Made by a program: the position numbers and the translations under genes. A DNA stretch of 64,000 nucleotides from an uncultured virus (IMG/VR IMGVR_UViG_3300028797_000119) (lineage: Duplodnaviria; Heunggongvirae; Uroviricota; Caudoviricetes), in the IMG/VR virus record IMGVR_UViG_3300028797_000119; one strand, given 5' to 3'. Of the stretch, positions 41,062 through 59,460 are shown piece after piece. How positions within the stretch are numbered: the first letter of the stretch is position 1; the number at the start of each line of letters is the position of its first letter. The notes beneath the pieces are model-generated. The model had not been told where the DNA came from, did no database searches, and worked only from the letters and a program-made list of their open reading frames with translations.

Positions 41062-41122
41062 ATCTGTCTCCTTGTTTGGTTACATATAGACAATACTGGG
41101 TAAGGGGAAACCCGGACGGCTC

Positions 41123-41362: not shown

Positions 41363-41427
41363 TTGAATCTCCTTGTTTGGTTACATATAGACAATAGTCG
41401 GTAAGGGGAAACCCGGTTCCCCCGTCG

Positions 41428-42279: not shown

Positions 42280-42795
42280 TTATATCTCCTAGTGGTTGGT
42301 TACAGATAACTGGTTGGGACGGTGGCACCCGTCCGAACACTGCACAGATTCCCCACTGGGGGAAACCCGGCTGCGCTCGGAAAGTGCCGCCAACTAGTCC
42401 CGTGTTCCCGGAACGTTCCCGACCGCCGGAACAGCGAGAACAGAGGTCTAGTTCTCGCATGTTGATGAAATGTTGATAAGTTGTGACCAAGTGTCGGCTG
42501 GTGGCGGCAAGTGGGCGGATCGCCCAAAAAGTGGCAAACCTGACAGGTGTCTGGACTAAGTAGCCGTCAATCGAGACATTTTGTTCCACGTGCGAGGGGT
42601 TGCCGCGTGGCGGCACTGGCTTGCACGTTTACGACACGCGACAGAATCTAGAAGGTGTTGATAAGATGTTGATAAAAATGTTTCATGTGGAACGTTAATA
42701 AACACCCCCGCCAAGAGCTACCGAGTTCGGTAAATCCGGCAGGGGTGCCGATTGAGTGTGCTACATGTCTAGAGATAGCACCTACGGAAAAATAA

Positions 42796-43383
42796 TTAAC
42801 TGTCAAGGCACTGTTTGACGTAGTTCGTGTCGAAGAAGTGGATTTTGAACGCTTGGATAAGTCTGTGGGCGTTCTGTTTCGACATGCCGTAACGTTTGGC
42901 GACCGTTTCGAGGGAATCTGTCGAGTTGACAAATTCTTTGAAAAGTTTTTCGCCTTTCTTTACTGCATCGAGCGACTTCTTTGAGTATTTGGTTTTGAAA
43001 ACGGCTGTAGACAGTTCGCTTGCAGCGAACTTGATTACATCAGCTTTCTCGCGGTGAGGTGGGATGACACCGTTGTTGACCAATTTCACTTCGTCCGGCG
43101 TAAGCGGTTTAGCCTTATAAAGTTTTTCGAATTGGATGTTGTGGAACTCAGCAACCTTAACAGCTTCGTTCCATGATTTGCCTTTGGGCAAGATGCCGGA
43201 CCGTAGTTGTTCGATCTGCTTGGGAGTCCACTTTTCGTCGACGATTTTAGCTTTATGGAAGGTGAAGCCGAGTTGTTTGGCTTTGATGTGACATGCTGCA
43301 TGGTGCGGATGGTTTTCAGGAATAATCCCACGTTTGAGCTTGTCGATATCCTCCTCAGTCCATTCATTATAGGTTCTACTCAT
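42796..43383 (-). CDS. putative DNA-binding protein (three WT..E/GI.P repeats plus HTH)
   Basis: WTEEDIDKLKRGIIP, WTPKQIEQLRSGILP, LTPDEVKLVNNGVIP, SLETVAKRYGMSKQNA; TTGACA-N17-TATATT at 43421-43449. Confidence 0.65.
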   Translation of the reverse strand: MSRTYNEWTEEDIDKLKRGIIPENHPHHAACHIKAKQLGFTFHKAKIVDEKWTPKQIEQLRSGILPKGKSWNEAVKVAEFHNIQFEKLYKAKPLTPDEVKLVNNGVIPPHREKADVIKFAASELSTAVFKTKYSKKSLDAVKKGEKLFKEFVNSTDSLETVAKRYGMSKQNAHRLIQAFKIHFFDTNYVKQCLDS

Positions 43384-43507
43384 ATTATGCTCCTTTTGGG
43401 AGATCTATTACACGAGTAGAAATATAGATTAAAATGGGCTAGATGTCAAGGTTTGTGATATATAAATGAGATATTTGGTCTGTGGAGACCCGGTCTAACG
43501 GGAAGAG

Positions 43508-44284
43508 TTACTTGCAGATGATGATGTTTTCCGGAATATACTGGAACCGTTTGACATCGTTCGTATCGCCACGACCAGCAGCGACCTTGATGACGGTCTG
43601 GATGGCCTTTTCACGCTGTTCTGGGGTGAAATAAAATTTTCTGTCGTGTTTGTCGAGGGACTTGATGTCGACAAATCCGATGAAGAAGCCAGTACCACCG
43701 TGGTTGTTACCGAGTCCGAAGGTGTTATAGTGGTAGACGGGGGGATCGGTTTCGACCCACCATATATTGTCGAAAAATACGAACTGGTCTACGACCTTCT
43801 GGGCAGCTTCACGGGCCTTGAGCATCGTGCTTGTGACGGCGACGGAGCCGAGGGTTTCGATATCTACTTCGGATTTGAAGAGTCTCTGGACTTCGGAGTT
43901 GATATCTGAGACTTGGTTTCGGATACGCCATTCGATTTCGTCTGTGACGATATCCTTGGAGTTCATATAGAGAGTCGAGACGGCGGAACCGTGGGAATAC
44001 ATTACCGGACGGTAAAGCTTTCCCTTGTATTTCCGGATTGGTGTATCGACGAGGCGGAATTTGCCTTTAGAGGAGTCTGTGAAGTCTTCGAAGGACTTGG
44101 CGTCTTTGTAGACGGAAGCGTAGTCACGGACGACGTAGACCTTTTCGAACTCCTTTTCATCGAGCTGGCGGCAGTCAAATTCGAAGGAGCGGGTGTAGAT
44201 TTGGTGGAGGTTACGGCGGTGACGGTTGGACCGGCGGAAGATACTGATGTAAGAGTATTTGGCTTCGAGCTTGAACAGTTTCAT
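43508..44284 (-). CDS. hypothetical protein
   Basis: AAGGAG RBS, junction element. Confidence 0.75.
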   Translation of the reverse strand: MKLFKLEAKYSYISIFRRSNRHRRNLHQIYTRSFEFDCRQLDEKEFEKVYVVRDYASVYKDAKSFEDFTDSSKGKFRLVDTPIRKYKGKLYRPVMYSHGSAVSTLYMNSKDIVTDEIEWRIRNQVSDINSEVQRLFKSEVDIETLGSVAVTSTMLKAREAAQKVVDQFVFFDNIWWVETDPPVYHYNTFGLGNNHGGTGFFIGFVDIKSLDKHDRKFYFTPEQREKAIQTVIKVAAGRGDTNDVKRFQYIPENIIICK

Positions 44285-44357
44285 ATAGACTCCTTTTTGG
44301 TGGTGTATAACCAGAATAGCCGGACTGGGGAAGCCCGGCTGGTTCTAGGGGTTCTGG

Positions 44358-44639
44358 TTACATACAGCGGTCATAGACTTGGTTGAAGACATCCTTGAAG
44401 GCAGCGGGGACAGAGTCGCACGCGACATTGATGGTCAAAAAGTCTTCTTCTTGGAAGGCGTTGGGGGTTCCTTCGTTATAGTTCATACCGATGTAGACGA
44501 GACCCTTGTCGTAGTCGATTTTGGAGATAAAGACGTGACGGTCGGTGAGCTGGATAGCCTTTTCGAGGGTCTGGATCTGGTCATCGGAGAAGATGTCCAT
44601 AGCTTTCTTGTCGGGGTTGGTGTGGATGATTTTCGGCAT
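44358..44639 (-). CDS. hypothetical protein
   Basis: AAGGAG RBS, junction element. Confidence 0.7.
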   Translation of the reverse strand: MPKIIHTNPDKKAMDIFSDDQIQTLEKAIQLTDRHVFISKIDYDKGLVYIGMNYNEGTPNAFQEEDFLTINVACDSVPAAFKDVFNQVYDRCM

Positions 44640-44711
44640 TGGAAACTCCTTTAGTTGAGCTTGGTTTACACTAACCATATTGGTGGTTAGGGGAAACCCG
44701 GCTGGGTCTAA

Positions 44712-45212
44712 TTAGTCGTCGAAGACGATTTTTCCATATTTATCGGCTTTTCTGGCCAGATTGTCAAACGATTTCATATGGAAAACAGCCGTGGACGCTT
44801 CTTGAATAGCTCTGGCGAGGCTGAATGCGAGATGGTAATAGGGTCGGACCTGTTTCTTGTTCGGTTTAGCGATAAGGTTGGTGCTCTTCATATAGGCGAC
44901 CTTCTCGTTACCCTTGAGGGTGAAGACCGGTTTGTCGGCCTCGAAGTAGGCAGCCAGACCAGTAGACTTTCCGTTTTGGTTGATACCGGCTGTGGATATA
45001 GTGACTTTAGCCCAAGCTGCCTTGATTACGACGGATTCACGACCTTCGTCGTCTTTTTCGTAAGAGATTTGGCACATCTTTGGGTAGATCTGTCGAAATT
45101 CGGCGAGATCGCCAGTAAACTGACTACCGGTTTCGTCTTTAAAGATGTAGTTCTGCTTTTCGAACATTTTCTGCAGCGTTTTGGCAGTAAGGGAAATAGA
45201 ACGGTTAGACAT
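44712..45212 (-). CDS. hypothetical protein
   Basis: AAGGAG RBS. Confidence 0.75.
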   Translation of the reverse strand: MSNRSISLTAKTLQKMFEKQNYIFKDETGSQFTGDLAEFRQIYPKMCQISYEKDDEGRESVVIKAAWAKVTISTAGINQNGKSTGLAAYFEADKPVFTLKGNEKVAYMKSTNLIAKPNKKQVRPYYHLAFSLARAIQEASTAVFHMKSFDNLARKADKYGKIVFDD

Positions 45213-45317
45213 AACTAATCTCCTTGATGATGGATATACATAACCGGCTGGGTTCGCTTTATAGATGATAGAGTTGGGGAAGCCCGGATAGGTGTAGTCA
45301 GTGGTAGTTAGAAATAA

Positions 45318-45440
45318 ATAAAAAATAGGCCGAGGAAAATCCTCGGTCTATATAAGCGGTTGGGCTACGAGTGTTTAGGTGGAAAAATGTTGTGGTTGTA
45401 GCCCGGTCGGCTCAGGGAGAGAACCGTCCTTACCGCTTGG
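45318..45440 (-). ncRNA. candidate small RNA (about 120 nt)
   Basis: TTGACA-N17-TATATT at 45446-45474, nested stems AAGCGGT/ACCGCTT and GGGCTAC/GTAGCCC, terminator hairpin plus T-run, no ORF. Confidence 0.55.
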
Positions 45441-45470
45441 TAACAAATATAGCAAATGAAAATTATTTTG

Positions 45471-46238
45471 TCAATTTTCCTCCAGTTTTTTCTTGTAGAG
45501 TTTGACGGCCTTGTTACCGGTTTCGACGGTCTGGACCAGATAGTCTCTGATGTTACCGAGTGGGTCCGGCTTGGAGCAGGGTATTTCGGAGTCGTCGACG
45601 AAGATGTGGTCGTCCAAGTTTCGGATGTACTGGGAATAGACGGCCCAGCTGTCGTCTTCTGGGTTGTATGAGAGCTGGAGCTGGATGTCGAAGTCCGGGA
45701 GCTGGTTGTAGATATTCTTGACGACGAAGATAAAATCTATGTAGTCGTCCTTGGGAGCGTCCATCACCCACTGGTCGATGACGGATGGACCGTTACCGAG
45801 ATCCGTGGAAAGAGCTGTCTTCAGCATACCCATCAGCTGTTCGCCTTCTTTCGAGCCACGGTAATGGGCGTACTTACGGAGGAGGGACGTGGAGTTGTCG
45901 GCGCAGATGCGGAGGGTGGACTGAGCCGTAGGGATTCCGAGGACGTGCCGGAGTTCGGATTCGAAGGTTTCGGAAACGTAGTCCTTTTCCTTGGTGCAAG
46001 CGATACAGTCGTCTACGTTCTTGGGGTTTTTGACGACGAGCTGGTAGACGAATCCCTTGAGTCTGGTGAAAACGACCAGTTCGACTGGGTAGATTCCGTA
46101 GGTAGCTGGGAATATCCAAGCGATGTCCTTGGAGATCTGCTTGATCTGGATGTGTTCCACGTCGATGACGAGCTTGTTCTTGGAGTCATCCTGGATCTGT
46201 TTGGCGATACATGAGAGGGAAAGACCATTGATTGACAT
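45471..46238 (-). CDS. hypothetical protein
   Basis: start refined to ATG 46238; junction element. Confidence 0.75.
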   Translation of the reverse strand: MSINGLSLSCIAKQIQDDSKNKLVIDVEHIQIKQISKDIAWIFPATYGIYPVELVVFTRLKGFVYQLVVKNPKNVDDCIACTKEKDYVSETFESELRHVLGIPTAQSTLRICADNSTSLLRKYAHYRGSKEGEQLMGMLKTALSTDLGNGPSVIDQWVMDAPKDDYIDFIFVVKNIYNQLPDFDIQLQLSYNPEDDSWAVYSQYIRNLDDHIFVDDSEIPCSKPDPLGNIRDYLVQTVETGNKAVKLYKKKLEEN

Positions 46239-46311
46239 ATTGAGAACTCCTTTTGGTTGGTTGTATAGGAAGAATGACCGGTCAAGGGAAACCCGGACCG
46301 GTCGAGACAGT

Positions 46312-46719
46312 TTACTCGATCTGTTCTTTGAGGCGACCGAGCTTGTCCATTTCCTTGCTGATTTCTTGTTTGATTTCAACCATCTTGAGGATTTCGTAGT
46401 GGATCGAGAAGACGGAAGCGAGGAACTTCTTGAACTGTCGGAGCGTCGCCTTGGTCTTGATGATGTTGATCTGGTAATTCCACTCGATACATTCGTCTGG
46501 GAACTTGGACTTGCAAATCTTGACATTGATGTCGTCGTCCTTGCGATGGAAGACGACGCAGCCTTCGTTCTTGTCTTGGTACTGGATGATCAAGCGACCG
46601 GATTCGTCGATTTTGGCCTTGTTGTTGAAGTCGCCGCCGAAGATGTCGTCGAGAGCCTTGGTGAACTTCTTGTTGTCGAAAAGGGTTTCTTTCTTCTGGA
46701 TGAGGGTGGTGAGATTCAT
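46312..46719 (-). CDS. hypothetical protein
   Basis: AAGGAG RBS, junction element. Confidence 0.75.
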   Translation of the reverse strand: MNLTTLIQKKETLFDNKKFTKALDDIFGGDFNNKAKIDESGRLIIQYQDKNEGCVVFHRKDDDINVKICKSKFPDECIEWNYQINIIKTKATLRQFKKFLASVFSIHYEILKMVEIKQEISKEMDKLGRLKEQIE

Positions 46720-46788
46720 TTGATACTCCTTTTGGTTGTATAGTGGTAATGACCAGTCTGGGGAAGCCCGGACCGGTCTGGGGAGTTA

Positions 46789-47370
46789 TTACGGCTTGAA
46801 CACCTCGATTTCCATCCGAGCGGCCTCGTCGGCATAACCGACCGGAACCGGTACCGAGCCTTTCGCCGGGTTCGGCGAGCCGTTCGGAAGTGTTTTCGCT
46901 TGGGCGAGGAAGTTGGATACTTTTTCTTCGAGAGAATCACCCGGGAAATCGATCTTGGTCGGGTCGTCGACTGAAATGAGAGCGGTCCAGAGCTTTTCGA
47001 CCCGGACGAGGGTGATATTGCAGTTGAAGAGCTTGAAGGTCGGATGTTTGGCGAGCCAGCCGTAAAACTTGTCGGCATAGCAATCGTCGTCGTCGACCTT
47101 GAAGAAACCGGCGTCTTCAAAATATTTTACCACCGCGACAAAGTCTGCGTTATCGTAGAGGTTGATCGCTTCGATGTAGGTCTTCTTCTTGTCGATTACG
47201 ACGGAGTTGCAGAAGGACTGGATATTAAAATCTTTAATTCCGGACTTGTCGAGCTTTTCCTTGAGAGCGGCTTCGGCCTTGTTGGCGGCTTCTTCGACGG
47301 AATCGGCAGCGACGTGGATGTTGAGTTTCTTGGTGATGTTGACTTGGACGATGTACTTGGGATTTTTCAT
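46789..47370 (-). CDS. hypothetical protein
   Basis: AAGGAG RBS. Confidence 0.75.
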   Translation of the reverse strand: MKNPKYIVQVNITKKLNIHVAADSVEEAANKAEAALKEKLDKSGIKDFNIQSFCNSVVIDKKKTYIEAINLYDNADFVAVVKYFEDAGFFKVDDDDCYADKFYGWLAKHPTFKLFNCNITLVRVEKLWTALISVDDPTKIDFPGDSLEEKVSNFLAQAKTLPNGSPNPAKGSVPVPVGYADEAARMEIEVFKP

Positions 47371-47374
47371 TTGG

Positions 47375-47566
47375 TTAGCTCCTTGCTGGAATGTCGATAT
47401 CGGCGATGGTGTCGTGAACGGACTTACCGGCGGTGAATCCTTTGATAAGTTCGTCGTTGTGTTCTACGATGAAGTCGTTGATCTCGTCGCCGTCGTAGTC
47501 GCGGTCGGCGAGGTATTCGTCGACACGGACGAGGAAGTCGTTGAATGCTTGGTTTACGTCTGACAT
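47375..47566 (-). CDS. small acidic protein
   Basis: AAGGA RBS. Confidence 0.65.
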   Translation of the reverse strand: MSDVNQAFNDFLVRVDEYLADRDYDGDEINDFIVEHNDELIKGFTAGKSVHDTIADIDIPARS

Positions 47567-47576
47567 ATAGTTTCCT

Positions 47577-47825
47577 TTAGTCGGCGAACTGGCCGTCTTC
47601 GTATCCGTCGCAGTAGTTGACGACGAGATCCTTGTCACCCTTGGGAAGGTCGGTACGTCTCGGCGAGCTGCTACGAGCGTCGTCGTTGCCTTTTTCCCAC
47701 CATTTATTGTTGAAGCCTTCGTTGTAGTCGTTCTGGGCTTCCGGAGAGGGGAAGTCGGTAGTCTTGCGCGGCTTTTCGTTTTCGGCGTCGTTTTCGCCTT
47801 GAGTGTTCCAGTTGATGTTTGTCAT
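47577..47825 (-). CDS. small acidic protein
   Basis: junction element. Confidence 0.7.
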   Translation of the reverse strand: MTNINWNTQGENDAENEKPRKTTDFPSPEAQNDYNEGFNNKWWEKGNDDARSSSPRRTDLPKGDKDLVVNYCDGYEDGQFAD

Positions 47826-47891
47826 ATTGAACTCCTTTTGGTTGTATAGGGAAAATATCCGGACTGGGGAAGCCCGGATATGATCAGCCAG

Positions 47892-48245
47892 TTAGTCGAG
47901 GTGGCAGACGCATTCGGCGTACACGCCAATGTCGTCACCCATTCCGAAACCGGTCTCCGATTCATCTGATTCGACGGCGGTGTAGACGTTCAGAGCGATA
48001 TTGTCGCTGTCTGGGTCGTCATCGACGTAGAAGAATTCGCCGTTGAACACGTAGTAGTCGTATTCGAATGCGAACCAGTGTTCTTCGGTGATTTCCTTCT
48101 TGCCCACGTTGTCCAGAATGAATTCGATTTCGTCGCCGTTGGTAAGCGTCAGCTTTACGGTGAGATCTTTCCCGAAGGGGGTGAGTTCGAGCTTGAGGTC
48201 GTCGAAGTCTGAATTGTCGCGTTCGTTGGAGGCTTTGAACTGCAT
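47892..48245 (-). CDS. very acidic protein
   Basis: AAGGAG RBS, D/E-rich. Confidence 0.7.
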   Translation of the reverse strand: MQFKASNERDNSDFDDLKLELTPFGKDLTVKLTLTNGDEIEFILDNVGKKEITEEHWFAFEYDYYVFNGEFFYVDDDPDSDNIALNVYTAVESDESETGFGMGDDIGVYAECVCHLD

Positions 48246-48255
48246 AATGTACTCC

Positions 48256-48660
48256 TTAGATGTCGGTGTTCATGAACTTGGAGATGGCGACGGCGAAAGT
48301 CTTGGTGGCTCCAAGAACCTTTTCGACCCATTCTTGAAGGTCTGGTGCGTCGGCAGCCTTGATACCGGAGAACTTGATTTGGTTGCAGAAGGTGACCGTG
48401 TAGACGACATCGCCGAGCTTGGTTTCTGCGAACTTGAGGACGATGTTGGTTCCTTCGGACGAGTTCTTTTTCTTGGGGGTGTAGGTAGCCGAGAAATAAT
48501 CGACTGTTACGGAGTGCGTTTTTGGGGACTGTTTAGTCACTTTATAATGCGGTTGGAGCGAGTCGTAAGTCAGCATACCGTCATAGAATACGACGGAACA
48601 GCACCGCTGGTCGAACGAGTCTCTGGCGCGGACGATTGCGTTATAGATGATTTCTTTCAT
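48256..48660 (-). CDS. hypothetical protein
   Basis: AAGGAG RBS. Confidence 0.75.
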   Translation of the reverse strand: MKEIIYNAIVRARDSFDQRCCSVVFYDGMLTYDSLQPHYKVTKQSPKTHSVTVDYFSATYTPKKKNSSEGTNIVLKFAETKLGDVVYTVTFCNQIKFSGIKAADAPDLQEWVEKVLGATKTFAVAISKFMNTDI

Positions 48661-48742
48661 TTTTGAACTCCTTGTTGGTTGGTATAGAAAAAATAAAAAG
48701 GGAAGGTAAGCCCGGACGGTGCCGGGCAGTTCCCAGAGTTTT

Positions 48743-49237
48743 TTAGTAGATGATCTTTTCGAGGCACTGTTTTTTACGGCTGATGTTCTCGATACTGGAG
48801 TCGATATCGTTGAGACACGCCTTGATGTAGAGAGCAGCTTCGAGAAGTGCTTCGATGGTCTGGAGCTTGCGGTGTCTGTAGTGGCGGAAGATGATCGTGC
48901 GGACGGACTGGGGAACAGTATTCCAGAGCTTGTCCTTTTCGGTGTCGGTGAGTTTCTTGCCGACGATGGCGAGTGAGAGACGGTTGAGTTCGGGGTAGAC
49001 CGTCAAGTAGATGGCACCGTGGGCAAATTTGGGGTCGTTGTACTGGTGGAAACGGAACTTGTATTCGACACGATCTTTCCAAGTGGAGACGATTGCCTTG
49101 CACTGGTTGTTTCGGAACATATTGTCCAGAACGGTCGAGAGCGGCTTGCTGTCCGGAACGCTAGGCAACTTCTTGCTGCGGTCGCTGAAACTGAAGGTTT
49201 CGACGGTAAGGGGTGGGATTTCTTTTTTCTTAGCCAT
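48743..49237 (-). CDS. hypothetical protein
   Basis: junction element. Confidence 0.75.
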   Translation of the reverse strand: MAKKKEIPPLTVETFSFSDRSKKLPSVPDSKPLSTVLDNMFRNNQCKAIVSTWKDRVEYKFRFHQYNDPKFAHGAIYLTVYPELNRLSLAIVGKKLTDTEKDKLWNTVPQSVRTIIFRHYRHRKLQTIEALLEAALYIKACLNDIDSSIENISRKKQCLEKIIY

Positions 49238-49306
49238 TGTGAACTCCTTTCTGGTTTGGTATATGGGAAATGACCAGTCTGGGGACGCCCGGACCGGTCT
49301 GGACAG

Positions 49307-49747
49307 TTACTTCACAGTTCGGCTGCCGTGCCATTCGATACCGAGCTTCTTCGCCAGTCGGCGAGCGGCTTGGTATTCTGGGCAGCGGCTGTTGTCGCCG
49401 TGGTCCCAGGATGCGATCATACCGTGCTGCTGCAGAACGGAGAGGAACACCTTGATAACCACGTCGTACGGTTCTCGACAGGTCTTGCAGAAACGCCAGC
49501 TGTCGATGCCAATACGCTGGTTAACGTCGTCTTCCTGTTCGAGGCTGAAGTTGAACGTGTCGAAACACGGTTTACCGTAGATACGGATGTGTTTCTGGTT
49601 GATGTAGTACGAGAGCTTCTGGTCGTCGGTCTGTTTGGCGTTGTATGCCTCGACGACCTTGATCAACTGGTCGACCATCAGCTGCGGGAATGCGCTGACT
49701 TCGCCGTTCTCGACTTTCTCGCTCGGTACCCAAGAATTAACGTACAT
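49307..49747 (-). CDS. phage-type hypothetical protein
   Basis: FCKTCREPYDVVI motif; start refined; junction element. Confidence 0.75.
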   Translation of the reverse strand: MYVNSWVPSEKVENGEVSAFPQLMVDQLIKVVEAYNAKQTDDQKLSYYINQKHIRIYGKPCFDTFNFSLEQEDDVNQRIGIDSWRFCKTCREPYDVVIKVFLSVLQQHGMIASWDHGDNSRCPEYQAARRLAKKLGIEWHGSRTVK

Positions 49748-50021
49748 AATGAACTCCTTTTGGTTGGTATAGGAAAAATGGACGGTCTGGGGAGACCCGG
49801 TCACCAGCAGAAAGTGGATCCTACCAGTCTGAACGGCTGGTTGCCTTTCCAGTGTGGAAGCTTCTGGGAATCCTCGGCTACCAGCCGGGCGGCTTCCAGA
49901 TAATTTTCCGGAACAGTGAACGAGTTTTGGTGGTTTCTGGCGCACTGGGCTACCTTCTGGAGGATCACTGTGCGTTTCTGGTCGAGTTCGTGGTCTTCTG
50001 GCATAAATGTCCTCAAAAATG

Positions 50022-50175
50022 AAAAAAAGAACGGCCCAGCATACCCCAGACTGAGCCGTTCCCCCTATACGCAACCAAAGGAGTTACTATGGTTGTATTC
50101 ATTCTAATAAACATAGCGGACGATGATAAGTAATGACGAATTAACAAACCGCCGTCCGTTGCGAATTTCATTGAT
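50022..50175 (-). ncRNA. candidate small RNA antisense to the shared cassette leader/RBS
   Basis: TTGACA-N17-TATATT at 50182-50210; contains CATAGTAACTCCTTTGGTTGCGTATAG; terminator GAACGGCTCAG/CTGGGCCGTTC-T7. Confidence 0.55.
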
Positions 50176-50224
50176 GGCTCAAATATAAAAACTTATATCG
50201 GGGCTGTCAAGGTATGCTGGAAAA

Positions 50225-50818
50225 TTATTTTTCCTTGACGATGGTGTACTTGATCCAGGAGTTAGTACCCCACGAGGCTGGCGATTCCGCACACTTGGCT
50301 TGCATAACGGCCTTAAGGTTGATACGTTCCGGACGGTCGGCGGCCTTCGCCGCACGGTTGAAGTCGTTGACGACCCACTTGCAAGCTGCTTCTAACGTCG
50401 GTTTGGTGACGGCGAACGGTACGAGGGTTCCGTTCGGTTCGTTGTATTCGGCACCCTGCACGATGAACTTCTTTGGAAGATGCTTGTCGTTGATGCCGAA
50501 CGCCGTCGTCAAGCAACTGATGTGGTTTCCACCGGTTGTTTCGATATCGAATTTGACGCTCTCAGTGTCCGGGTCGTCCAGCGCTTTCTGGGCAAGCTTG
50601 ATGCCGGTTTTCACGGTTTTGACGGAGTATTCGCTTGTGGTTGTCTGTTTTCCGGTTATGACGAGTAGGAACGTTTCAATACGGGTTTTGCCAAGTTTCT
50701 TGATTCCGATATTGAGCCAGTCTTCAATGTTGTGTTTGGCAAGGCTATGCTTGAGGGTTATCATGTCGTAAATTTTCAGTTCATCGTGGTTTGTGGTTGT
50801 AAATGACCAAAGTTTCAT
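50225..50818 (-). CDS. hypothetical protein
   Basis: junction element. Confidence 0.75.
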   Translation of the reverse strand: MKLWSFTTTNHDELKIYDMITLKHSLAKHNIEDWLNIGIKKLGKTRIETFLLVITGKQTTTSEYSVKTVKTGIKLAQKALDDPDTESVKFDIETTGGNHISCLTTAFGINDKHLPKKFIVQGAEYNEPNGTLVPFAVTKPTLEAACKWVVNDFNRAAKAADRPERINLKAVMQAKCAESPASWGTNSWIKYTIVKEK

Positions 50819-50887
50819 TTTGAATCTCCTTGTTGTTTGGTATAGGATCAATAGCCAGTCTGGGGAAACCCGGCTATCCAGAGCCAG

Positions 50888-51514
50888 TTAGGTGTCGCCG
50901 TAGCGATCCCAAGTAAATTTGGCGTAGTCGTGTGCGTTGTCGGCCTCGAAGGGGGAACCGTCGAGGACGGAACCGCTGAAGTAGGTGTTGACCTCGTTCC
51001 AGAAGTCTTCGAACGTGATCGCGCTGGAATTATCGTGCAATTCAATAATTTTTGTCTTTCCAAGGTATTCGGCGAGCGTCTTGCTGGTGATCTTTTCGCC
51101 GTCGTGCCAGTGGGCGGAGAAGTATTCGATGATCTCGTCGGCCATGCTGCCCAGAGCGTCGCGCTTGAGCATATCGGCGAGATCCTTGTTGGCGGCGTCG
51201 AGCCACTTGTCGGCTGGTAGCTTGGCGTAATCGCCATCGACCCACTTTTTGGCTAGCGCGTCGCAGAGGCTCCAGCGGTATTCCATCATTTCGGAATGGC
51301 GGTCGTCGAGCTGTTCGTCAGATTCTTCTGAAGCTTCGCGGAAGTCGAGGTGTTCAGAAAGCATTCTGGACATCGTGTTGAGCTTGACTTCGTCGTCGCT
51401 CAAAGGTTCGTCGTTCTGGTCGATCACTTCGCTGCGGTTGTTGTCGTAACCGTCGTTACAAAAGTAGAGGCCGTTCTGGAGGCAAGATTCGTTGAGTTCC
51501 TTGTGAGAAAGCAT
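50888..51514 (-). CDS. acidic hypothetical protein
   Basis: junction element. Confidence 0.75.
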   Translation of the reverse strand: MLSHKELNESCLQNGLYFCNDGYDNNRSEVIDQNDEPLSDDEVKLNTMSRMLSEHLDFREASEESDEQLDDRHSEMMEYRWSLCDALAKKWVDGDYAKLPADKWLDAANKDLADMLKRDALGSMADEIIEYFSAHWHDGEKITSKTLAEYLGKTKIIELHDNSSAITFEDFWNEVNTYFSGSVLDGSPFEADNAHDYAKFTWDRYGDT

Positions 51515-51594
51515 TTTAAACTCCTTTGTTTGGTATAGAAAAAATATCCGGGCTGGGGAAGCCCGGCCCAGACCTGACAGTCCGGAAAAATTAT

Positions 51595-51846
51595 TTAGTC
51601 GATATCGACTTCGACTGTTCTGGAAAATTTTACCGTCCCGTCATTAACCCAGAGAGGACCGTCGTATTCGCCTTGTCTAAGGTGATGGCCGTCAAATGTT
51701 AAAAGATTATACCAGTCTGAATCACCGGGCATATGGTTCTCAAGCGGAATGATGCACGGTGCTTTTCCGCCGACCAACAAAAGCTGGCCTTCGATCGTTC
51801 CCTTAGTGCAATGTTCGCCTGTATAAAGATTTATTTGGATTTTCAT
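51595..51846 (-). CDS. hypothetical protein
   Basis: GAGG RBS. Confidence 0.6.
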   Translation of the reverse strand: MKIQINLYTGEHCTKGTIEGQLLLVGGKAPCIIPLENHMPGDSDWYNLLTFDGHHLRQGEYDGPLWVNDGTVKFSRTVEVDID

Positions 51847-52042
51847 AAAACCCTCGTGTTAAAAAATGTTTGGTAACTGAAAATTAAAATATAAAAAAGT
51901 CCGCCGGCTTACCTCCATATACACCTCAACAAAGTAAGCCGGCGAACCCAAGGAAACAAAAAGTTTTCCAGCCGTGCCTAGGAGCTAATTCTCTGAGCGG
52001 TGGCACGGCTGGAAAGAACCAACCATACCGCTCAGGAAAATT

Positions 52043-52810
52043 TTAATGGTCGTGGCAACCGATGACCTTTGCAGTCGGCTTGTCAATGCACAGACGGCAA
52101 GTGTCGCAGTGGATCGGACGGCGGACGGCACGTTTCGAGCCTTCCGGAATGACGTAGGCCGGACAATAAATTTTTGTTTCCAGTCTCACGTCGCCGTCGT
52201 CGTAGACGAAAGCCTTGACGTTCGGCAAGTCCTTGACACGTTCGTATTCCTTGACACCTTGATCTTTCCACACGGAGTAGAGGATAGTGAGGTTTTTCGG
52301 AACGAGGCCAGCCTTCAAAAATTTTTCCACGAGGTCGTACATTTTCGTGTAGAGGTAGGAACGGGTTTCGGGGAAAGCTTCGGCGAGGCGGCACCACATG
52401 GCCAGCTGTTCCTCGTTTTCGAGTTCGCCGGACTGGTTAATGCGGTAGACCTTGATCTCGCGACGCTTGATCTGGGCGGCGAGGTCACGTTCGACCTTAT
52501 CAAGTTCGTTACGCATACCCCAAGTGTTCACGGCTTGGCTGTAGATAACCGAGGGGAAGCGGTAGGAAGCGCGGACGTAGCAAGCCTTCTTGCAAGAGCC
52601 GCAGTTCTGGCAAGTACCCTTGATGTTCTTGAGCTTGCCAGTGAGCTTCTTATAGGTGTAGTCACCCATCAAGGTCGAGAACGTGGGGATCTCGCCGACC
52701 TTGGTGTTGCCGCCCATATTGAAGCCGTAGGTGTGGTGCTTGGGGTCGAAGCTGAGCATGGCGATACCGTCGCTCGGCGTGACAATGTTCTTGGTTTCGT
52801 CGAAAAGCAT
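52043..52810 (-). CDS. GP88-like Cys-rich (Fe-S/radical-SAM-like) phage protein
   Basis: GNTKVG, TCQNCGSCKKACY, RINQSGE, YLYTK, CP...CDTCRLC...H. Confidence 0.7.
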   Translation of the reverse strand: MLFDETKNIVTPSDGIAMLSFDPKHHTYGFNMGGNTKVGEIPTFSTLMGDYTYKKLTGKLKNIKGTCQNCGSCKKACYVRASYRFPSVIYSQAVNTWGMRNELDKVERDLAAQIKRREIKVYRINQSGELENEEQLAMWCRLAEAFPETRSYLYTKMYDLVEKFLKAGLVPKNLTILYSVWKDQGVKEYERVKDLPNVKAFVYDDGDVRLETKIYCPAYVIPEGSKRAVRRPIHCDTCRLCIDKPTAKVIGCHDH

Positions 52811-52888
52811 TTGGATAACTCCTTTTAGTTGGTTGTTTTGTGTATAGTGTTTATACATCGCTGGGGGAAACCCGGACGGATCCGGTCA

Positions 52889-53278
52889 TTACGGTCGCCC
52901 GATACTCTCCACCAGCTGCTTTGCCTTATCGGCGATTTTGTCGAACACGGCGTGGACGGACGTGGACGACAGTGAGAGGCTTGCAAGGTAGTCACGACCT
53001 TTGTGGACACCCATAGACAAGCTCCAGTTCTCGTTGATGTTCGGACGGTCGTCACGGCGGAGGTGAATAGTCAGCTCGTAACCTTCGGGAAGGTGCTTGA
53101 ACTGGTCGAAGGTGGCGATCGCGAGGTTGCACTCAGATCCAGGGGTGCGGTCGTACCAGAAGTCGCTCATTTCCTCGCCGTTGGCGGCGAAGTCCATCGA
53201 CAAGGCGTTCTTGAGGGGGTCGGCGTGGTCGAACGGTTCTCGACAGCGCAACATAGCTACAGAGGTGTAATTGCTCAT
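52889..53278 (-). CDS. hypothetical protein
   Basis: junction element. Confidence 0.75.
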   Translation of the reverse strand: MSNYTSVAMLRCREPFDHADPLKNALSMDFAANGEEMSDFWYDRTPGSECNLAIATFDQFKHLPEGYELTIHLRRDDRPNINENWSLSMGVHKGRDYLASLSLSSTSVHAVFDKIADKAKQLVESIGRP

Positions 53279-53414
53279 TGTTTAACTCCTTTTGGTTGGT
53301 ATATGACCGATAGCCGGTCTGGGGAATCCCGGATGGTTGCAGTCAGTGGCCTATGGCCAGATCGCCGTAAATAGGTGGGAGCTGGTCTGAACCAGTCCCA
53401 CCGTTGGTTAGTAC

Positions 53415-54227
53415 CTACTTGGCGGCACTCTTGGCGATAGATGCCTTCTTTTGGTCAAGCTGTTCCTTGATAACGCCTACCTTGACTTCGTCAGACAAGT
53501 AGAGCTTTTCACCATCGCGCCAGTCGCCCAAATAGAAGTCGATATTCTTTGCACCGTGCCGAGCATATGCGAGCAAAGCCTTCAGATTGTCAATGCTCGT
53601 GTTGTAGTCGAGGCTCGTGCGGTAAGTCCACGAGAGCTTTGCGTCCTTGCGAGGCTTGGAAACAAATTTTTTGTCACGGACGGCCACTTCAAACGGACAG
53701 TCGTCGTAGCGGCTGAACAAGCCGTCAAAAATCTTGAGGAAGGTCGCCTTCGTGATGGGTGCCTTTTGGTTGCAAATCACGTATTCGGTCGGTTCACCCT
53801 TGACAAAGTGCTGTTCGTAGCACTTGACGGACGGAATGTTGAAGCGGAGCTTGCCTTTGTAGCGGCGGTACACGAGCTGCGCCTCGGTGAGCTTCTTGGC
53901 CTTCTTGTATTCCACGGCTTCGCTCTTGTCGTGGGTCACGTCGGCACTGCTATCGAGACTTGCGAAGTGGCGGATGAGGTCGTTCGCATCGGTTTCCGGA
54001 CAGCGCAGCGTTTCTTCGAAGAAGCCTTCTTCGCCGTCGTGGTCGGAACGGCTGTTGTGAACGAAAGCGTCGATGATCGTGGAACCGTTGTACTTGCGGA
54101 CGAGTTCGTCGAGCTTCTTGTCGAACGCAGTCCACACGCGGTCCATAAGGTTATGGAACGAGTCGGTTTCGTAGTTGCAGCCAGTGAAACGGTGGAACTT
54201 GACGGTGATAAGCTTCATTTTAGGCAT
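53415..54227 (-). CDS. hypothetical protein
   Basis: junction element. Confidence 0.75.
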   Translation of the reverse strand: MPKMKLITVKFHRFTGCNYETDSFHNLMDRVWTAFDKKLDELVRKYNGSTIIDAFVHNSRSDHDGEEGFFEETLRCPETDANDLIRHFASLDSSADVTHDKSEAVEYKKAKKLTEAQLVYRRYKGKLRFNIPSVKCYEQHFVKGEPTEYVICNQKAPITKATFLKIFDGLFSRYDDCPFEVAVRDKKFVSKPRKDAKLSWTYRTSLDYNTSIDNLKALLAYARHGAKNIDFYLGDWRDGEKLYLSDEVKVGVIKEQLDQKKASIAKSAAK

Positions 54228-54299
54228 TTTGAATCTCCTTTTGGTTGGTATAGGAACAATGGGAAGGCCGGGGAAGCCCGACCAGTCCCAGACAGTCCC

Positions 54300-54590
54300 C
54301 TAGATCTTCTCGACTACCCAGACGAACTTGCGGTTCCACGACTTGGGGGATTTCAGCGTGGCCTTCTTGTTCTTTTCGAGTTCAAGGGTGAGGCGCACGA
54401 CTTGACGGCTGGACAGCTTGGGAGGCACCTTGCCGCTGGGGAGCTTGACCTCTTCTCGCCAGTCGTTGTAAAGGAAAGCCACTTTTTCGATTGCTTCTCC
54501 GGAGGTATCGCGGTAGTAGCGATAGGGATCCTTCGCGCCGTCTCGAAAAACGGTTTCATTGACGACAAAAGAATTTTTCTTCTTGGGCAT
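54300..54590 (-). CDS. basic hypothetical protein
   Basis: GAGG RBS. Confidence 0.65.
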   Translation of the reverse strand: MPKKKNSFVVNETVFRDGAKDPYRYYRDTSGEAIEKVAFLYNDWREEVKLPSGKVPPKLSSRQVVRLTLELEKNKKATLKSPKSWNRKFVWVVEKI

Positions 54591-54626
54591 AAGAACCTCG
54601 TAAAGGGGGTGTTACCCCCCTTTTAA

Positions 54627-54896
54627 TTATTTGTTCTTGGTGAACTTCTCGTTGCTCTTGGCGCGGATATCCTTCACGCGAGCGACGAGCTTGTGGGAGC
54701 CTTCTTCGATCTTGTCGGCAGCGGCGTCGGCGGCATTGCCAGCGGCATCCTTGACAAGTGTTCCGCCCACGTCGGTCGCCTTGCCAACGAGTTCGGATGT
54801 GGCCTTGGCTGCCTTGTCCTTTGCGGACGGCGAGGCGAAGAAGTAGACACCGGCGACAATGCCGAGGAGGAAGATGGTGACAAGGAACTTGAACAT
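54627..54896 (-). CDS. TM-anchored Ala/Lys-rich small protein
   Basis: AAGGAG RBS, N-terminal TM. Confidence 0.7.
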   Translation of the reverse strand: MFKFLVTIFLLGIVAGVYFFASPSAKDKAAKATSELVGKATDVGGTLVKDAAGNAADAAADKIEEGSHKLVARVKDIRAKSNEKFTKNK

Positions 54897-54919
54897 TGTT
54901 ACTCCTTTATGGTTGTGGG

Positions 54920-55111
54920 TTAGATTGGATAGGTCACGTCGGCGAACGCTTGTCTTTCGTCGTCGTCTTCGGTGATATCTTCGACATTGGCGTTGTCGGT
55001 GTCGATGATATCTTTTTCGTAAGCTTTTTGAATGACCTCTTCGTCAGAGAGTGAGGTTTCCGAGGTCACGGCGACCGAGCTTCCGTCGGTGTTGATTTTG
55101 TAGAATTTCAT
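54920..55111 (-). CDS. small acidic protein
   Basis: junction element. Confidence 0.7.
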   Translation of the reverse strand: MKFYKINTDGSSVAVTSETSLSDEEVIQKAYEKDIIDTDNANVEDITEDDDERQAFADVTYPI

Positions 55112-55173
55112 ATTGAACTCCTTTGGTTGGTATAGGATCAATAGCCGGACTGGGGAAGCCCGGCTAGTCCCAG

Positions 55174-55428
55174 TTAGTCGATCGAGGCGACCTTGATTGT
55201 TGACATCTGGTCGAGGCCGAGACGCTTGAGGTCGTCGATGCACTTGTCGTCGAACACGGCTTCGTGATGACCGTTATGGTACATATTGGCTTCGAGGTCT
55301 TCGATCTGGTCGAGGTCGATATCGCCGTCGAAAGTCCAAATCGGGTGATAGGGTCGTTTAAGTTCGCGGTTCGTGATTACGATGGGCTGGCGACCGTTCG
55401 TCACGTTCAGATAAGCTTTCCATGCCAT
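55174..55428 (-). CDS. hypothetical protein
   Basis: junction element. Confidence 0.75.
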   Translation of the reverse strand: MAWKAYLNVTNGRQPIVITNRELKRPYHPIWTFDGDIDLDQIEDLEANMYHNGHHEAVFDDKCIDDLKRLGLDQMSTIKVASID

Positions 55429-55482
55429 TTTGAATCTCCTTTAGGTTGGTATAGTGGTTATAGGAAACCAGGGGAAGCCCGG

Positions 55483-56181
55483 CTACTGCTGGACAGTAGC
55501 TTCGGGTTTCTTGGAGGGGTTGAGCCGTTCTCCGCGCTTGATGAGCGTTTCCAAGTTGCTCTTAGCGTCCCGGATTGCTCGCCAGTTCCCATCGATCGCC
55601 TTCAGCAATTCGTAGTCATCGGGACACTTGGCCTTCTTCCAATTCGTGAGAAGGTACTTTGTCATATCGTTAAAAGATTTTGCGGCCAAGATGACTTCTT
55701 CCTTGCGTTTCTTGAAATCGGCCTTGCGCTTGGCCTTGTCCGCCTTGATCCAGTCGGTAACATTCTTATAGAAGCCGAGGAAGCGGTCATAAATCTCGTC
55801 AAGCTGCTTGGTGGTCATAGTGTCGAACCAAGTCTTGTCCACCCCACGGGTCGGAAAGAGTGCGCGGTCCGCGCTGAATGTTTCCAAGTGTCCATCGACC
55901 ATCTTGCCGTTGAACCAACACATATGGGAATCCCAAGTGTCCAAGAAGATATAACGGCTGCTCTCGATGTACGGACGACCGTGATCGTGTACAGTGTCGC
56001 CTTGACGGATGTAGGACAAGTGGTGGAACTGCTTGTCATAGGGGTTATAGATAGACAAGGTGAGCATATACGGCCAGTCGTGCGGGTCGGTGATCTTGAA
56101 CTTCTTGGGATGCTTGGCGATGTACTTGCTAAGCGGCATTTCCAAGATCTGTTCTTTGGTGATTTTAACTTCTTCGTCCAT
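55483..56181 (-). CDS. hypothetical protein
   Basis: junction element. Confidence 0.75.
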   Translation of the reverse strand: MDEEVKITKEQILEMPLSKYIAKHPKKFKITDPHDWPYMLTLSIYNPYDKQFHHLSYIRQGDTVHDHGRPYIESSRYIFLDTWDSHMCWFNGKMVDGHLETFSADRALFPTRGVDKTWFDTMTTKQLDEIYDRFLGFYKNVTDWIKADKAKRKADFKKRKEEVILAAKSFNDMTKYLLTNWKKAKCPDDYELLKAIDGNWRAIRDAKSNLETLIKRGERLNPSKKPEATVQQ

Positions 56182-56246
56182 ATTAACTCCTTTTGGTTGG
56201 TATAGAAAAAATATCCGGGCTGGGGAAGCCCGGACACCCGGAGACA

Positions 56247-56801
56247 TTACTTCTCCTTAATCACCCTGATACAAAGTTTTTCGTTGCCGTTCTCGAACGT
56301 GTAGCCGTCCAAGCAGTCGTCGCGGGTCACCTTGTCTTGGTCGCTGTTGCATTCTCGGATAGTGTCGTTTACAATATCCGCAACCGCGTCGGCGGCGTCT
56401 TCGCGAGAATCGTAGATGTGGGGGTCTTCCACAATTTCGTCGCCGTCTTCGAAGTGGTGGAAACCGCTCAGGAAGAACTTGCCCGGTTCCTTTTTAGTAA
56501 CGACTTCGCCACCGACGATAGACGCAAATTCCTCAGCGTCGTCCTTGTTGGGCAAGTGGATCGTGAGGAAGTTCTGTTCGTAGAAGTCATCGAACGAATT
56601 GTCGTCCACCTCGATAACAAAGCCGGGGTCGTTCTTGGCCTTGTCCATATCGAAAGCTGTATCGTCTTCTGGTTCGGTGTCGTCGGGATAGCGTTCGTGG
56701 AGGAACTTTCTGGCAGCGTCTGAATCGGAGATGCGAGTAACTGCGTCGCCGAGGAAGCTGTCTACGTCATCATATTCGTTGGTGTGGGTGCTGATAGCCA
56801 T
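56247..56801 (-). CDS. very acidic protein
   Basis: junction element, D/E-rich. Confidence 0.75.
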   Translation of the reverse strand: MAISTHTNEYDDVDSFLGDAVTRISDSDAARKFLHERYPDDTEPEDDTAFDMDKAKNDPGFVIEVDDNSFDDFYEQNFLTIHLPNKDDAEEFASIVGGEVVTKKEPGKFFLSGFHHFEDGDEIVEDPHIYDSREDAADAVADIVNDTIRECNSDQDKVTRDDCLDGYTFENGNEKLCIRVIKEK

Positions 56802-56854
56802 TTTGAAACTCCTTTGGTTGGTATAGTGGTTATGGCAAACCAAGGGAAACCCGG

Positions 56855-57274
56855 CTACTTCGAGCCAGTTTTCCCACAGTACGCTCCGTACAGAGCGGTT
56901 TCGGACAGACTGTAGCTGTCGTGGCCGGTACGAGGCGGATAGTAGTCGAGACAGACTTCGGTGCCGCGCTGGCGAACCGTCCACCACTCCTTGCACTTCG
57001 CGCACTGGCAACTGGCCTCTATATAGGGGTCTTGGGGGAGTGCCTTGCCGCGCTCCCAATTGGTGGACATCACGGACATAGACACTTCGTTGGGGTCGGC
57101 CTTGCCGCCACAGTACGGACAAGTGTCGCCGTCCTGGATCGCCTTCAGAGCGATTGTGACGAGGTGTACCGGCTTTCCGAGATAGTAGCCGTCCTTTGCG
57201 ACTGCCCAGCAGTTCTTATAGTAGCGGGGCCTCGTCTTTCCAAACTGCTTGTTGATTTCCTTTGACCACAGCAT
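56855..57274 (-). CDS. Zn-finger protein
   Basis: CPYCGG...CAKC; junction element. Confidence 0.7.
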   Translation of the reverse strand: MLWSKEINKQFGKTRPRYYKNCWAVAKDGYYLGKPVHLVTIALKAIQDGDTCPYCGGKADPNEVSMSVMSTNWERGKALPQDPYIEASCQCAKCKEWWTVRQRGTEVCLDYYPPRTGHDSYSLSETALYGAYCGKTGSK

Positions 57275-57449
57275 TGTAGCCTCCTTTTGGTTGGTATAGA
57301 ACAAATAGCCGACCGGGGGAAACCCGATCGGCCACAGTTAGTGGACGGCTCCGTCAGGCTTGCCTCAGCCGTCTGGCAGCCGTCCGTTCAAATAAAGTGG
57401 TGACTGGGAGCACCCCTACCCCCAGCCACCTTAGCTACCAACCACGGAG

Positions 57450-59375
57450 CTAAACAAGACCCTTGAGCAAGTGAGCGATTACGTTCACCGTCCAGCCGTT
57501 GCCGATGGCCTCGATGCGCTGGTGACGAGTGCAGCCGCCTTTAGCCGTGTAGCCGTCGGGAATGGTCTGCAACCGTTCGCATTCGGTGACCGTCATCGGT
57601 CGGATAGTGCAGCCAGTCGCCTTGCCTTGGTCGTCGGTGAAGCGATTGTCGCTCTTAAAAAGATTTTTCAGTTCGGTCGGTTCGACATTGAACACGGCTT
57701 GACCCATAGACTTGCCGAAGTAACGGCGGCAGAGATAGGCTTGGGTTCCTTGGAAGCCAGCGTAACGGCGAGCCAAACACAAAGATTTTTCACGGTCAAC
57801 CACGCCGTTTTCGATAATGTCCTTGAGCTTGATTCCCATATCCGTCGGCACGGACGCATACGGAATGTTCGTCCAGTAGAGACGCTTGCGATTCTGAGCC
57901 GAGACGAGTGCGGAATTGATTTCCAGCGGTTCCACGCCGAAGGCTTCGGTGATGGCGGCCTTGATATCCTTGCTCATAGAGGCGTTGTTCTCGTAGAGGA
58001 AGTACGGAACGCCGCTTTCCTTCCAAGCGCGGACATACTGGGAGAACAAGTCCCATCCGATGCCAGAGTTCGTGGTTTCACGACCGTGGCCGGCCTTGGC
58101 GATGCTCCAGTTCGTGCAGTTGTGCACTACACGGTTGTTACAGATGTACGATTCGTCGTCGGCAACCGAAATATTGTACACGGTGGCGTCTTCAGCTTTC
58201 ATCTTGGATTTGAACGGTGTGAAAACTTTTGTACCTTCCACGTGAGCGACCGACTGCGGTTTTAAAGTTTTATTGAAGACCAACGACCACTGCTGGTTCA
58301 ATTTAACCGTACGGCCTTCGATCGTACCGGTGGTTCCACGAGACGCGATTTTTCTAACTCCGACATTGACACCGTACGCTTTTTGCATAAGCAGTGCCAT
58401 AGAATACGCCAAGCGCTTGCTGGTAGTACATGCGTGGTATGTTTTCCATTTGGTGTCTTGGTGGCCATCACCGCTCATATACCCTTCAACTAGGGCAATA
58501 CAATGTGTTTTCGGCAGCTTCAGCAAGACGGTCGGTACTTGTTTTTCATAACAGTTTTGACCGAGATTCAAAGATAAAATCCGTTCGACCCATTCTTGGC
58601 TGCAAATGAGACAGCGTTCGACAGACTTACTGTGAGGGTAATGGGTTACATGGTAAGATTTTACGTGTTCGAGAAAGTCTTTGACCTTATTAGAACCGAT
58701 AGACAACACCACGGCATAATGGTAAGAGTTCTTGCGATTTTTGCGTTTGTCGTTGCGGATGTGGCCGTCGGCGAGGTATCGACCCAAAATCCAGCAGTCC
58801 TCTTCGGTAAGGTTTAACGGATTTTCTTCAGCTTGGATAATCGGCGACGACATAAAATCGCCTTTTTTCATGTCATTGACGGTTATCCAGGCTGGTCTTG
58901 AAAAAGTTCTTTCGGCGCAACGACGGTCGTTATTCCACACGCGCTTCATGCTAGACACATAGAACGGGTGGTTTCCAGTCACCGTAAAGTCGTCGGTACC
59001 TTGCGAAGATACTCGATATACGTCGGACGATGTCTTGTGGCCGACCGCCGTTACCGGCTTGAAACGGTCGTTATGGGTATAGACCATATCGCCGACCTTG
59101 ATATCTTCAATGGGCTTGTATCCGTCGCTGGTAAGTACCAAGTGACCCTTTGTGAAGCACGGACTCCCACCGATAAGCAAGTCGAAACCCTTGTACTGGG
59201 TGAAGTCGGCCTTGAACACGTCGCCGCCTTGTTCGGTTTCGGGGTAGTTGGCTTGGGTAATCTTGATGGCCGATTTTTCGATTTCGTAGGCGACATAGCG
59301 TTCGACTTTGATTCCAGCGCGGTCGAGAGCTATGTGACCGCAAGAGATACCGTCGAAAAGGGAAAGAACTTTCAT
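57450..59375 (-). CDS. C5-cytosine DNA methyltransferase containing an intein
   Basis: VLSLFDGI (motif I), GGSP|C, YENN (VI), AQNRKRLYW (VIII), ECERLQ, IGNGW (X). Confidence 0.92.
   Translation of the reverse strand: MKVLSLFDGISCGHIALDRAGIKVERYVAYEIEKSAIKITQANYPETEQGGDVFKADFTQYKGFDLLIGGSPCFTKGHLVLTSDGYKPIEDIKVGDMVYTHNDRFKPVTAVGHKTSSDVYRVSSQGTDDFTVTGNHPFYVSSMKRVWNNDRRCAERTFSRPAWITVNDMKKGDFMSSPIIQAEENPLNLTEEDCWILGRYLADGHIRNDKRKNRKNSYHYAVVLSIGSNKVKDFLEHVKSYHVTHYPHSKSVERCLICSQEWVERILSLNLGQNCYEKQVPTVLLKLPKTHCIALVEGYMSGDGHQDTKWKTYHACTTSKRLAYSMALLMQKAYGVNVGVRKIASRGTTGTIEGRTVKLNQQWSLVFNKTLKPQSVAHVEGTKVFTPFKSKMKAEDATVYNISVADDESYICNNRVVHNCTNWSIAKAGHGRETTNSGIGWDLFSQYVRAWKESGVPYFLYENNASMSKDIKAAITEAFGVEPLEINSALVSAQNRKRLYWTNIPYASVPTDMGIKLKDIIENGVVDREKSLCLARRYAGFQGTQAYLCRRYFGKSMGQAVFNVEPTELKNLFKSDNRFTDDQGKATGCTIRPMTVTECERLQTIPDGYTAKGGCTRHQRIEAIGNGWTVNVIAHLLKGLV
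58119..59159 (-). mobile_element. intein (347 aa) with LAGLIDADG homing endonuclease
   Basis: CFTKGHLV start, TGNHPF block B, LGRYLADG and VEGYMSGDG, VYNISV...VVHN|C end. Confidence 0.92.
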
Positions 59376-59460
59376 ATTAACTCCTTGTTTTGGTTGGCTG
59401 TCCTAAATTAGTTCTTGCATAGGGGAAATGGCTGGGCTGGGGACGCCCGGCCAGTTCCAG

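Follow-up and report, generated by a model that had tools for sequence, protein, structure and literature searches.

A predicted phage small RNA complementary to the leader shared by at least 40 genes of the same genome

The phage small RNAs (sRNAs) covered in the available part of a review (PMC12197685) target a single gene, a few genes, or the host. Several described systems approach the locus reported here. C4, encoded by phages P1 and P7, has 77 nt, three stems, and two loops, is excised by RNase P, and belongs to the immunity system; in the available text it is a trans-acting phage RNA in which a loop occludes ribosome-binding sites and upstream sequence adds specificity (PMC5320573). FopS of Bacteroides thetaiotaomicron is a paralogous family of 14 sRNAs whose seed lies at the 5' end; as its paper states in the portion available, one seed pairs with the translation-initiation regions of numerous genes that come first in their operons, and translation is repressed (PMC11697453). 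SviR, an sRNA of the phage satellite PLE, acts in trans on multiple targets and lowers the translation of phage genes (bioRxiv 10.1101/2022.04.08.487710). Repeated leaders have also been described. Cluster K mycobacteriophages carry SAS/ESAS, a repeated extended ribosome-binding leader that often lies behind a repeated putative promoter (PMC3203893, PMC11373665), and Anaya, Adephagia, Angelica, and CrimD each possess a single, oppositely oriented SAS that has no tie to a gene start (PMC3203893). In the available text of these papers, the role of SAS is called unknown and no function is given to the inverted SAS (PMC3203893, PMC11373665). In T4-type phages, PeSLs are repeated promoter/stem-loop/Shine-Dalgarno units that front small unknown genes and are shuffled by recombination; the word "antisense" is absent from the main text of the paper (PMC2839356).

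In the present study, we analyzed a 64-kb stretch of DNA (the window), which belongs to a large phage genome and contains mostly small genes without known functions. The RNA predicted here would work like C4 or FopS but belongs to neither. It differs from C4 as a predicted primary transcript from promoter to terminator with one continuous anti-leader segment and at least 40 predicted targets. Moreover, it has no Rfam match (window at E 1; the related L031 and L039 at E 10), and its predicted fold is a row of hairpins rather than a three-stem, two-loop structure. In contrast to FopS, it is encoded by one phage gene only, its seed lies in an internal loop, and it matches the repeated leader of its own genome. 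SviR is encoded by a satellite and directed against the helper phage, and the available text makes no mention of a shared repeated leader (bioRxiv 10.1101/2022.04.08.487710). These four cluster K phages show the same layout as the window phage, namely, a repeated leader in one orientation plus a single inverted copy without a gene behind it; however, their sequences and hosts are unrelated to those of the window phage. The likeness to PeSL concerns the target cassettes, between which gene shuffling was found; in the part of the PeSL paper available, the promoters have the sigma70 consensus, whereas the cassettes of the window carry CCGGGYTTCCCC/TATAC. A description of such an anti-leader RNA was not found in the open-licence PMC and bioRxiv literature (without supplements).

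An earlier note on this DNA proposed a master antisense RNA against the shared leader, with a 14-aa peptide on the opposite strand as the alternative. Direct reading confirmed the inverted leader, promoter, terminator, and 14-aa open reading frame (ORF) where that note had placed them. The features are as follows.

11327..63396, minus strand: 44 gene-front cassettes, the predicted targets (ACT-N11-RKCCGGGYTTCCCC-N8-YATY-N5-TATAC-CAACCAAAAGGAG-N5-9-ATG)
50182..50210, minus strand: sigma70-type promoter TTGACA-N17-TATATT, predicted start near 50175
50022..50175, minus strand: predicted non-coding RNA of approximately 154 nt, based on promoter, terminator, and conservation
50110..50164, minus strand: stem H1 (loop U-rich and variable), the best conserved stretch of the RNA
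50072..50095, minus strand: hairpin H2 in predicted folds, stem CAACCA/UGGUUG, with the anti-Shine-Dalgarno sequence AACUCCUU in the loop
50065..50091, plus strand: inverted cassette leader CTATACGCAACCAAAGGAGTTACTATG, the antisense segment of the RNA
50022..50061, minus strand: intrinsic terminator, 11-bp stem plus U7 (arms 50061-50051 with 50039-50029, T7 at 50028-50022)
49801..50004, minus strand: 67-aa gene without a cassette of its own
50089..50133, plus strand: 14-aa ORF MVVFILINIADDDK (16 aa in L035), judged incidental

The leader is common to dozens of genes, as the earlier note claimed: the strict pattern yielded 44 cassettes, all on the minus strand and with fixed spacing. The leader pattern occurred 31 times in the window (28 on the minus and three on the plus strand) against 6.0 expected. 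A weight matrix built from the 44 cassette leaders placed 50065-50091 as the best opposite-strand site at 17.2 bits, the next scoring 9.7 and the cassette median being 21.0. It is the only strong inverted copy of the leader in the window, which also agrees with that note. The inverted leader was the top opposite-strand match in all four phages that bear the RNA unit (17.2, 17.2, 13.4, and 13.4 bits). On the sense strand, a leader-like site without a start codon behind it was noted at 40052-40069 (minus, 17.0 bits), which is probably a decayed cassette. The combination of a leader-like site without a gene and an opposite-strand promoter was not found in the partial records L026, L042, and G001.

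The related phage record G001 (308 kb, 81% complete) ends inside the cassette array. It encodes a 270-aa sigma70-family protein with regions 2 and 4 (L059, 1348-2160), a candidate reader of the cassette promoter, and showed no match to an Rpb2-type or multisubunit RNA polymerase domain. Based on these two results, the cassettes are probably promoters for a phage sigma factor joined to a shared leader. Conserved T-then-purine steps at core+28/29 and +30/31 suggest that cassette transcripts start at the TATAC element. Hairpins exist in some cassette copies only, and N4-like hairpin promoters were rejected for the cassettes because the stem is missing in many copies and the spacing is fixed. Host-type promoters also lie inside the array, at 63457, 50210, 45474, and 43449 among others, and would yield read-through messages with the full leader.

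The promoter of the RNA unit belongs to a distinct class. TTGACA-N17-TATATT occurs nine times in the window against 0.03 expected from shuffles, fronting genes or RNA-like units, and looks like a host housekeeping promoter. Another copy belongs to an element without a gene (45320-45474, minus), in which the promoter is followed by approximately 120 non-coding nt that fold strongly and by a terminator; this element is absent between the aligned flanks in L030 and L039 and has no Rfam match.

The predicted transcript folds into hairpins between this promoter and the terminator, the stem of which includes one U-G pair and encloses an 11-nt loop. H2 is a weak hairpin in both lineages that possess the unit (-6 to -8 kcal/mol), with CCUUU open in the loop. 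The relatives have an ACCCA/UGGGU stem with UUCCUUUU in the loop. In the window, bases of the loop core were unpaired with probabilities of mostly 0.7-0.9; for CCUUUU, the value was 0.9 in L031 and L039. In these two relatives the RNA is predicted to be longer (approximately 167-169 nt) and to contain an additional 5' hairpin along with a second CUCCUUUU. Since the plus strand also folds well (z = -4.6 versus -3.4 for the minus strand), the strand was assigned from the promoter and T-run, not from folding. As read from sequence and conservation, the unit possesses its own promoter and intrinsic terminator, as a trans-acting base-pairing sRNA does. RNA contigs of four runs, compared with 43000-57000, covered cassette genes of related phages, for which contigs do not give the strand; none spanned the unit at 85% likeness, and one X4 RNA contig touched 50164 and 50220 with 27 letters on the short side.

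The earlier note had called for a check of conservation in relatives, and the unit was indeed recovered in three of them. A pattern scan of metagenome contigs returned 21 loci on 12 contigs, and three of these contigs carry the RNA unit, with identities to the window of 94% (L035), 74% (L031), and 72% (L039). Runs that bear the labels bovine gut or gut metagenome contain sequences related to the window. All orthologues come from this single scan because viral and genome contig collections, scanned for the RNA unit or the flanking proteins, gave no match. Similarly, blastn of 48000-53000 against 50,697 phage records gave no match, and a covariance model of the unit gave no additional copy in the 594 kb of sequence examined. 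The unit was also not found in the records of a more distant cassette-bearing lineage, namely, G001 (308 kb, partial) and the 20-kb pieces L026 and L042. We conclude that the RNA unit is real, non-coding, and conserved in a small lineage; with partial records examined for the distant lineage, an RNA at this locus is not shown to be clade-wide.

The four unit-bearing phages are really two lineages, and conservation counts are accordingly thin. The order of promoter, H1, linker, H2, terminator, and 67-aa gene is the same in all four, while surrounding cassette genes are gained, lost, and reordered among relatives. The promoter hexamers are kept in L035, L031, and L039 while the spacer drifts. 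Between the two lineages, four of the 14 aligned terminator pairs are altered on both sides and 98% of cells are paired. ORFs on both the sense and antisense strands vary in frame and length across the four phages. The unit is best read as a non-coding RNA gene because neither the peptide frame nor the sense-strand frames are kept. Two mis-called N-terminal extensions, P0023 and P0033, retain translations of H1, the anti-leader (QFPFGLG), and the terminator, hinting, at the amino-acid level only, at two further variants of the unit.

We evaluated the pairing of the RNA with leaders by dimer partition functions that include the cost of opening both RNAs; unrestricted duplex folding gave long artefactual duplexes. 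In the window, the mean predicted binding was -14.7 kcal/mol for cassettes (39/44 at -8 or below) and -6.1 for other genes (11/51), a set in which some cassette genes remain that the strict pattern did not catch (e.g., 21210 and 48660). Two distant relatives, each evaluated on its own genes, showed -8.8 kcal/mol (24/36) against -5.6 (4/18) for the L030/L025 contig and -8.7 (25/38) against -5.6 (4/18) for the L040/L037 contig. In L034, the difference was not significant (-15.1 kcal/mol, 28/29, against -11.0, 2/4). When the anti-leader segment was shuffled, 0, 1, and 0 of 60 shuffles were equally good (16 sampled leaders each), and an in-silico change of the H2 loop halved the binding. The additional CUCCUUUU that L031 and L039 carry in their 5' part bound cassettes and other genes alike, and 8 and 15 of 60 shuffles were as good.

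The predicted binding depends on where the target message begins. In the window, it fell from -12.5 kcal/mol for a start at core+29 to -11.3 (+31), -9.7 (+33), -7.5 (+36), and -6.0 (+39). With a start at the TATAC element, cassettes and others differed in the window (-11.3 versus -6.0) and in the relatives (-9.0 versus -5.2 and -8.9 versus -4.8); however, selectivity was gone when the leader began at the Shine-Dalgarno sequence (-4.1 versus -3.7). By prediction, the RNA keeps a conserved seed accessible, and this seed is complementary to the initiation regions of the targets in a start-site-dependent manner. Part of this test is circular, since a repeat necessarily pairs with its own inverted copy. 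What is informative is the persistence of the pairing despite replacement of the surrounding sequence: the anti-leader still lies in a loop even though the stem and the terminator differ in sequence between the lineages. The RNA of each lineage is predicted to bind the leaders of the other about as well as its own.

The best explanation, in our view, is that the phage encodes an sRNA that acts in trans against the leader shared by the cassettes, with a probability of roughly one half; its transcription, timing, and repressive effect are inferred. The host RNA polymerase would synthesize the approximately 154-nt RNA from the TTGACA/TATATT promoter to the terminator from the beginning of infection. 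The RNA is expected to appear first because its promoter is of the host type, whereas the cassettes probably need the phage sigma factor. The CCUUU of the H2 loop is predicted to seed on AAAGG of the leader, upon which the hairpin would open and 15-20 pairs would cover CAACCAAAAGGAG, i.e., the A/C-rich entry site and the Shine-Dalgarno sequence, and block 30S loading. Cassette messages that arise from leakage or read-through contain the full leader and are the best binders; these would thereby be silenced. Once at least 40 cassette promoters fire, leaders would outnumber the RNA, which may then serve as a threshold or buffer for the regulon rather than as a late off-switch; the host-type promoter likewise suggests early synthesis rather than late shut-off. 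Read-through of the terminator may supply the 67-aa protein.

The earlier note proposed that one sRNA could shut down the whole regulon. The three relatives give good support to a conserved, non-coding unit that runs from promoter to terminator and displays the anti-leader in a loop. However, "master shut-down" is too strong a term because binding was modest in two of the three relatives, depended on the start site, and has no counterpart in the distant-lineage records, which lack the unit. If the proposal is true, a whole gene class is controlled by one RNA through a shared leader, which represents a post-transcriptional layer in phage timing. It would also provide a reason for the conservation of the leader beyond the Shine-Dalgarno sequence, an open point for the SAS of cluster K. 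More tentatively, we speculate that the phage inverted its own repeated leader behind a host-type promoter and thereby placed a threshold on at least 40 genes, one that covers any gene newly brought in behind the leader by recombination and prefers read-through messages over those from cassette promoters. Unrelated phages may show the same arrangement, and it could account for the single inverted SAS found in cluster K mycobacteriophages.

Among the other explanations, a structured RNA that works through H1 as a protein-binding scaffold, decoy, or sponge is unlikely but has several points in its favor. In that case, H2 and the terminator would have arisen from an inverted cassette, and the anti-leader would be a relic of that cassette that contributes little to regulation. 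H1 is indeed the most conserved part: its 5' arm is identical at 20/20 positions in all six pairwise comparisons, far above the 21-22/37 identity of H2 between lineages, and none of its 13 pairs is altered on both sides, while its loop matches at 8-11/18. We regard H1 as a candidate protein-binding or stabilizing domain; a search for its complement in the phage DNA examined gave nothing notable. In addition, the terminator of the window lineage, read on the plus strand, resembles a decayed cassette core (CCAGCATACCCC-AGACTG-N12-TATAC versus CCGGGCTTCCCC-AGACTG-N11-TATAC), and cassettes do shuffle between relatives. However, L031 and L039 are without the cassette core, yet the anti-leader is their best inverted match and lies in a loop. 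The second CUCCUUUU is single-stranded in the 5' part of the same two RNAs, which also argues against a relic. Furthermore, H2 is identical at 29/30 positions between L031 and L039, whereas the H1 loop is identical at 8/18.

The RNA may instead be a cis-acting 5' leader of the 67-aa gene, attenuating or autoregulatory, and possibly sensing cassette mRNA or bound by the 67-aa protein itself; we judge this quite unlikely. The gene has no cassette and lies directly behind the terminator in 4/4 phages while its neighbors shuffle, and it is probably reached by terminator read-through. Its family was found on five of the 12 contigs from the metagenome scan. The protein is modelled as a small alpha/beta fold (pLDDT 85), with a weak likeness to winged-helix, R3H, and Z-alpha domains that is not significant (Z 5-6; best solved structure at Z 6.0). 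There was no Pfam family above the cut-off, no usable atlas match, and no Foldseek match below E 0.001 among viral models. Against a cis-acting leader, equilibrium folding of the nascent RNA revealed no conserved antiterminator: the 5' arm of the terminator pairs upstream with a probability of at most 0.43, and in L031 and L039 such pairing is approximately 0.01 beyond the first base of the arm. The terminator core also stays intact, its pairs having probabilities of at least 0.99 with or without a bound leader. Finally, in the distant L026 and L042, a homologue of the gene (39% identical) follows an AT-rich spacer of approximately 70 nt without the RNA, which therefore is not a required leader of this gene.

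A candidate attenuator of a different kind lies at 51950-52045 (minus), right after the stop codon of a GP88-like gene. This two-state element also occurs in L035, L031, L039, L026, L042, and L033 (two copies) and is thus present in the distant lineage without the anti-leader sRNA. Its 11-bp terminator-like helix with a U-run is paired in 88/88 cells across eight copies, with compensatory changes, and a mutually exclusive upstream helix appeared in the nascent fold of all eight. The 5' strand of the upstream helix carries GGUUGGU, which is complementary to ACCAACC of the leader, and the terminator loop contains AACUCC or AAUUCCU. Its binding to leaders was weakly selective (-8.7 versus -8.1 in the window; -2.1 versus -2.2 for the L026 copy on window genes).

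A general anti-Shine-Dalgarno RNA that shuts off host mRNAs, with an incidental match to the phage leader, is very unlikely. The seed CCUUU/CUCCU fits any AAGGAG site, and certain non-cassette phage genes bind well (e.g., 10676 at -12.6). However, the Shine-Dalgarno sequence onward alone gives approximately -4 kcal/mol, and, among the phage leaders compared, the RNA has extra complementarity to the phage-specific UACCAACC.

Ibs/Sib-type type I toxin-antitoxin systems consist of overlapping genes on opposite strands and include a short hydrophobic ORF that is conserved and has a promoter of its own. The peptide alternative of the earlier note, an inverted plus-strand cassette for a short hydrophobic toxin-like peptide with the RNA as its cis antitoxin, is highly improbable: AGGAG does precede the ATG by five bases, and the window and L035 have a hydrophobic ORF of 14-16 aa, but the core on the plus strand is degenerate (8/12), no plus-strand TTGACA/TATATT promoter lies nearby, and the ATG, AGGAG, and matching frame are missing in L031 and L039, so that no conserved hydrophobic ORF lies opposite the RNA.

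Other elements of the window were also recorded. A DUF2828/DUF7788 protein (PHROG 850, RNA-binding protein) is encoded at 2717-4198 (plus) behind a host-type promoter and is a possible candidate partner for phage non-coding RNAs. We rejected a Y-RNA reading of the unit, for which co-occurrence with this protein was the sole argument. A tRNA search of the window gave no match. A phage-borne CRISPR array of 19 repeat matches and 16 regular spacers, together with cas1- and cas3-like genes, occupies 26900-28720 and 28980-34957 (minus); the spacers gave no match to the other loci examined, and the array is broken by a 422-nt insert. The window also carries an FtsK-like ATPase gene, an IS605-type TnpB-like gene at 14382-15677 (plus), and a C5 methylase gene with an intein at 57450-59375 (minus).
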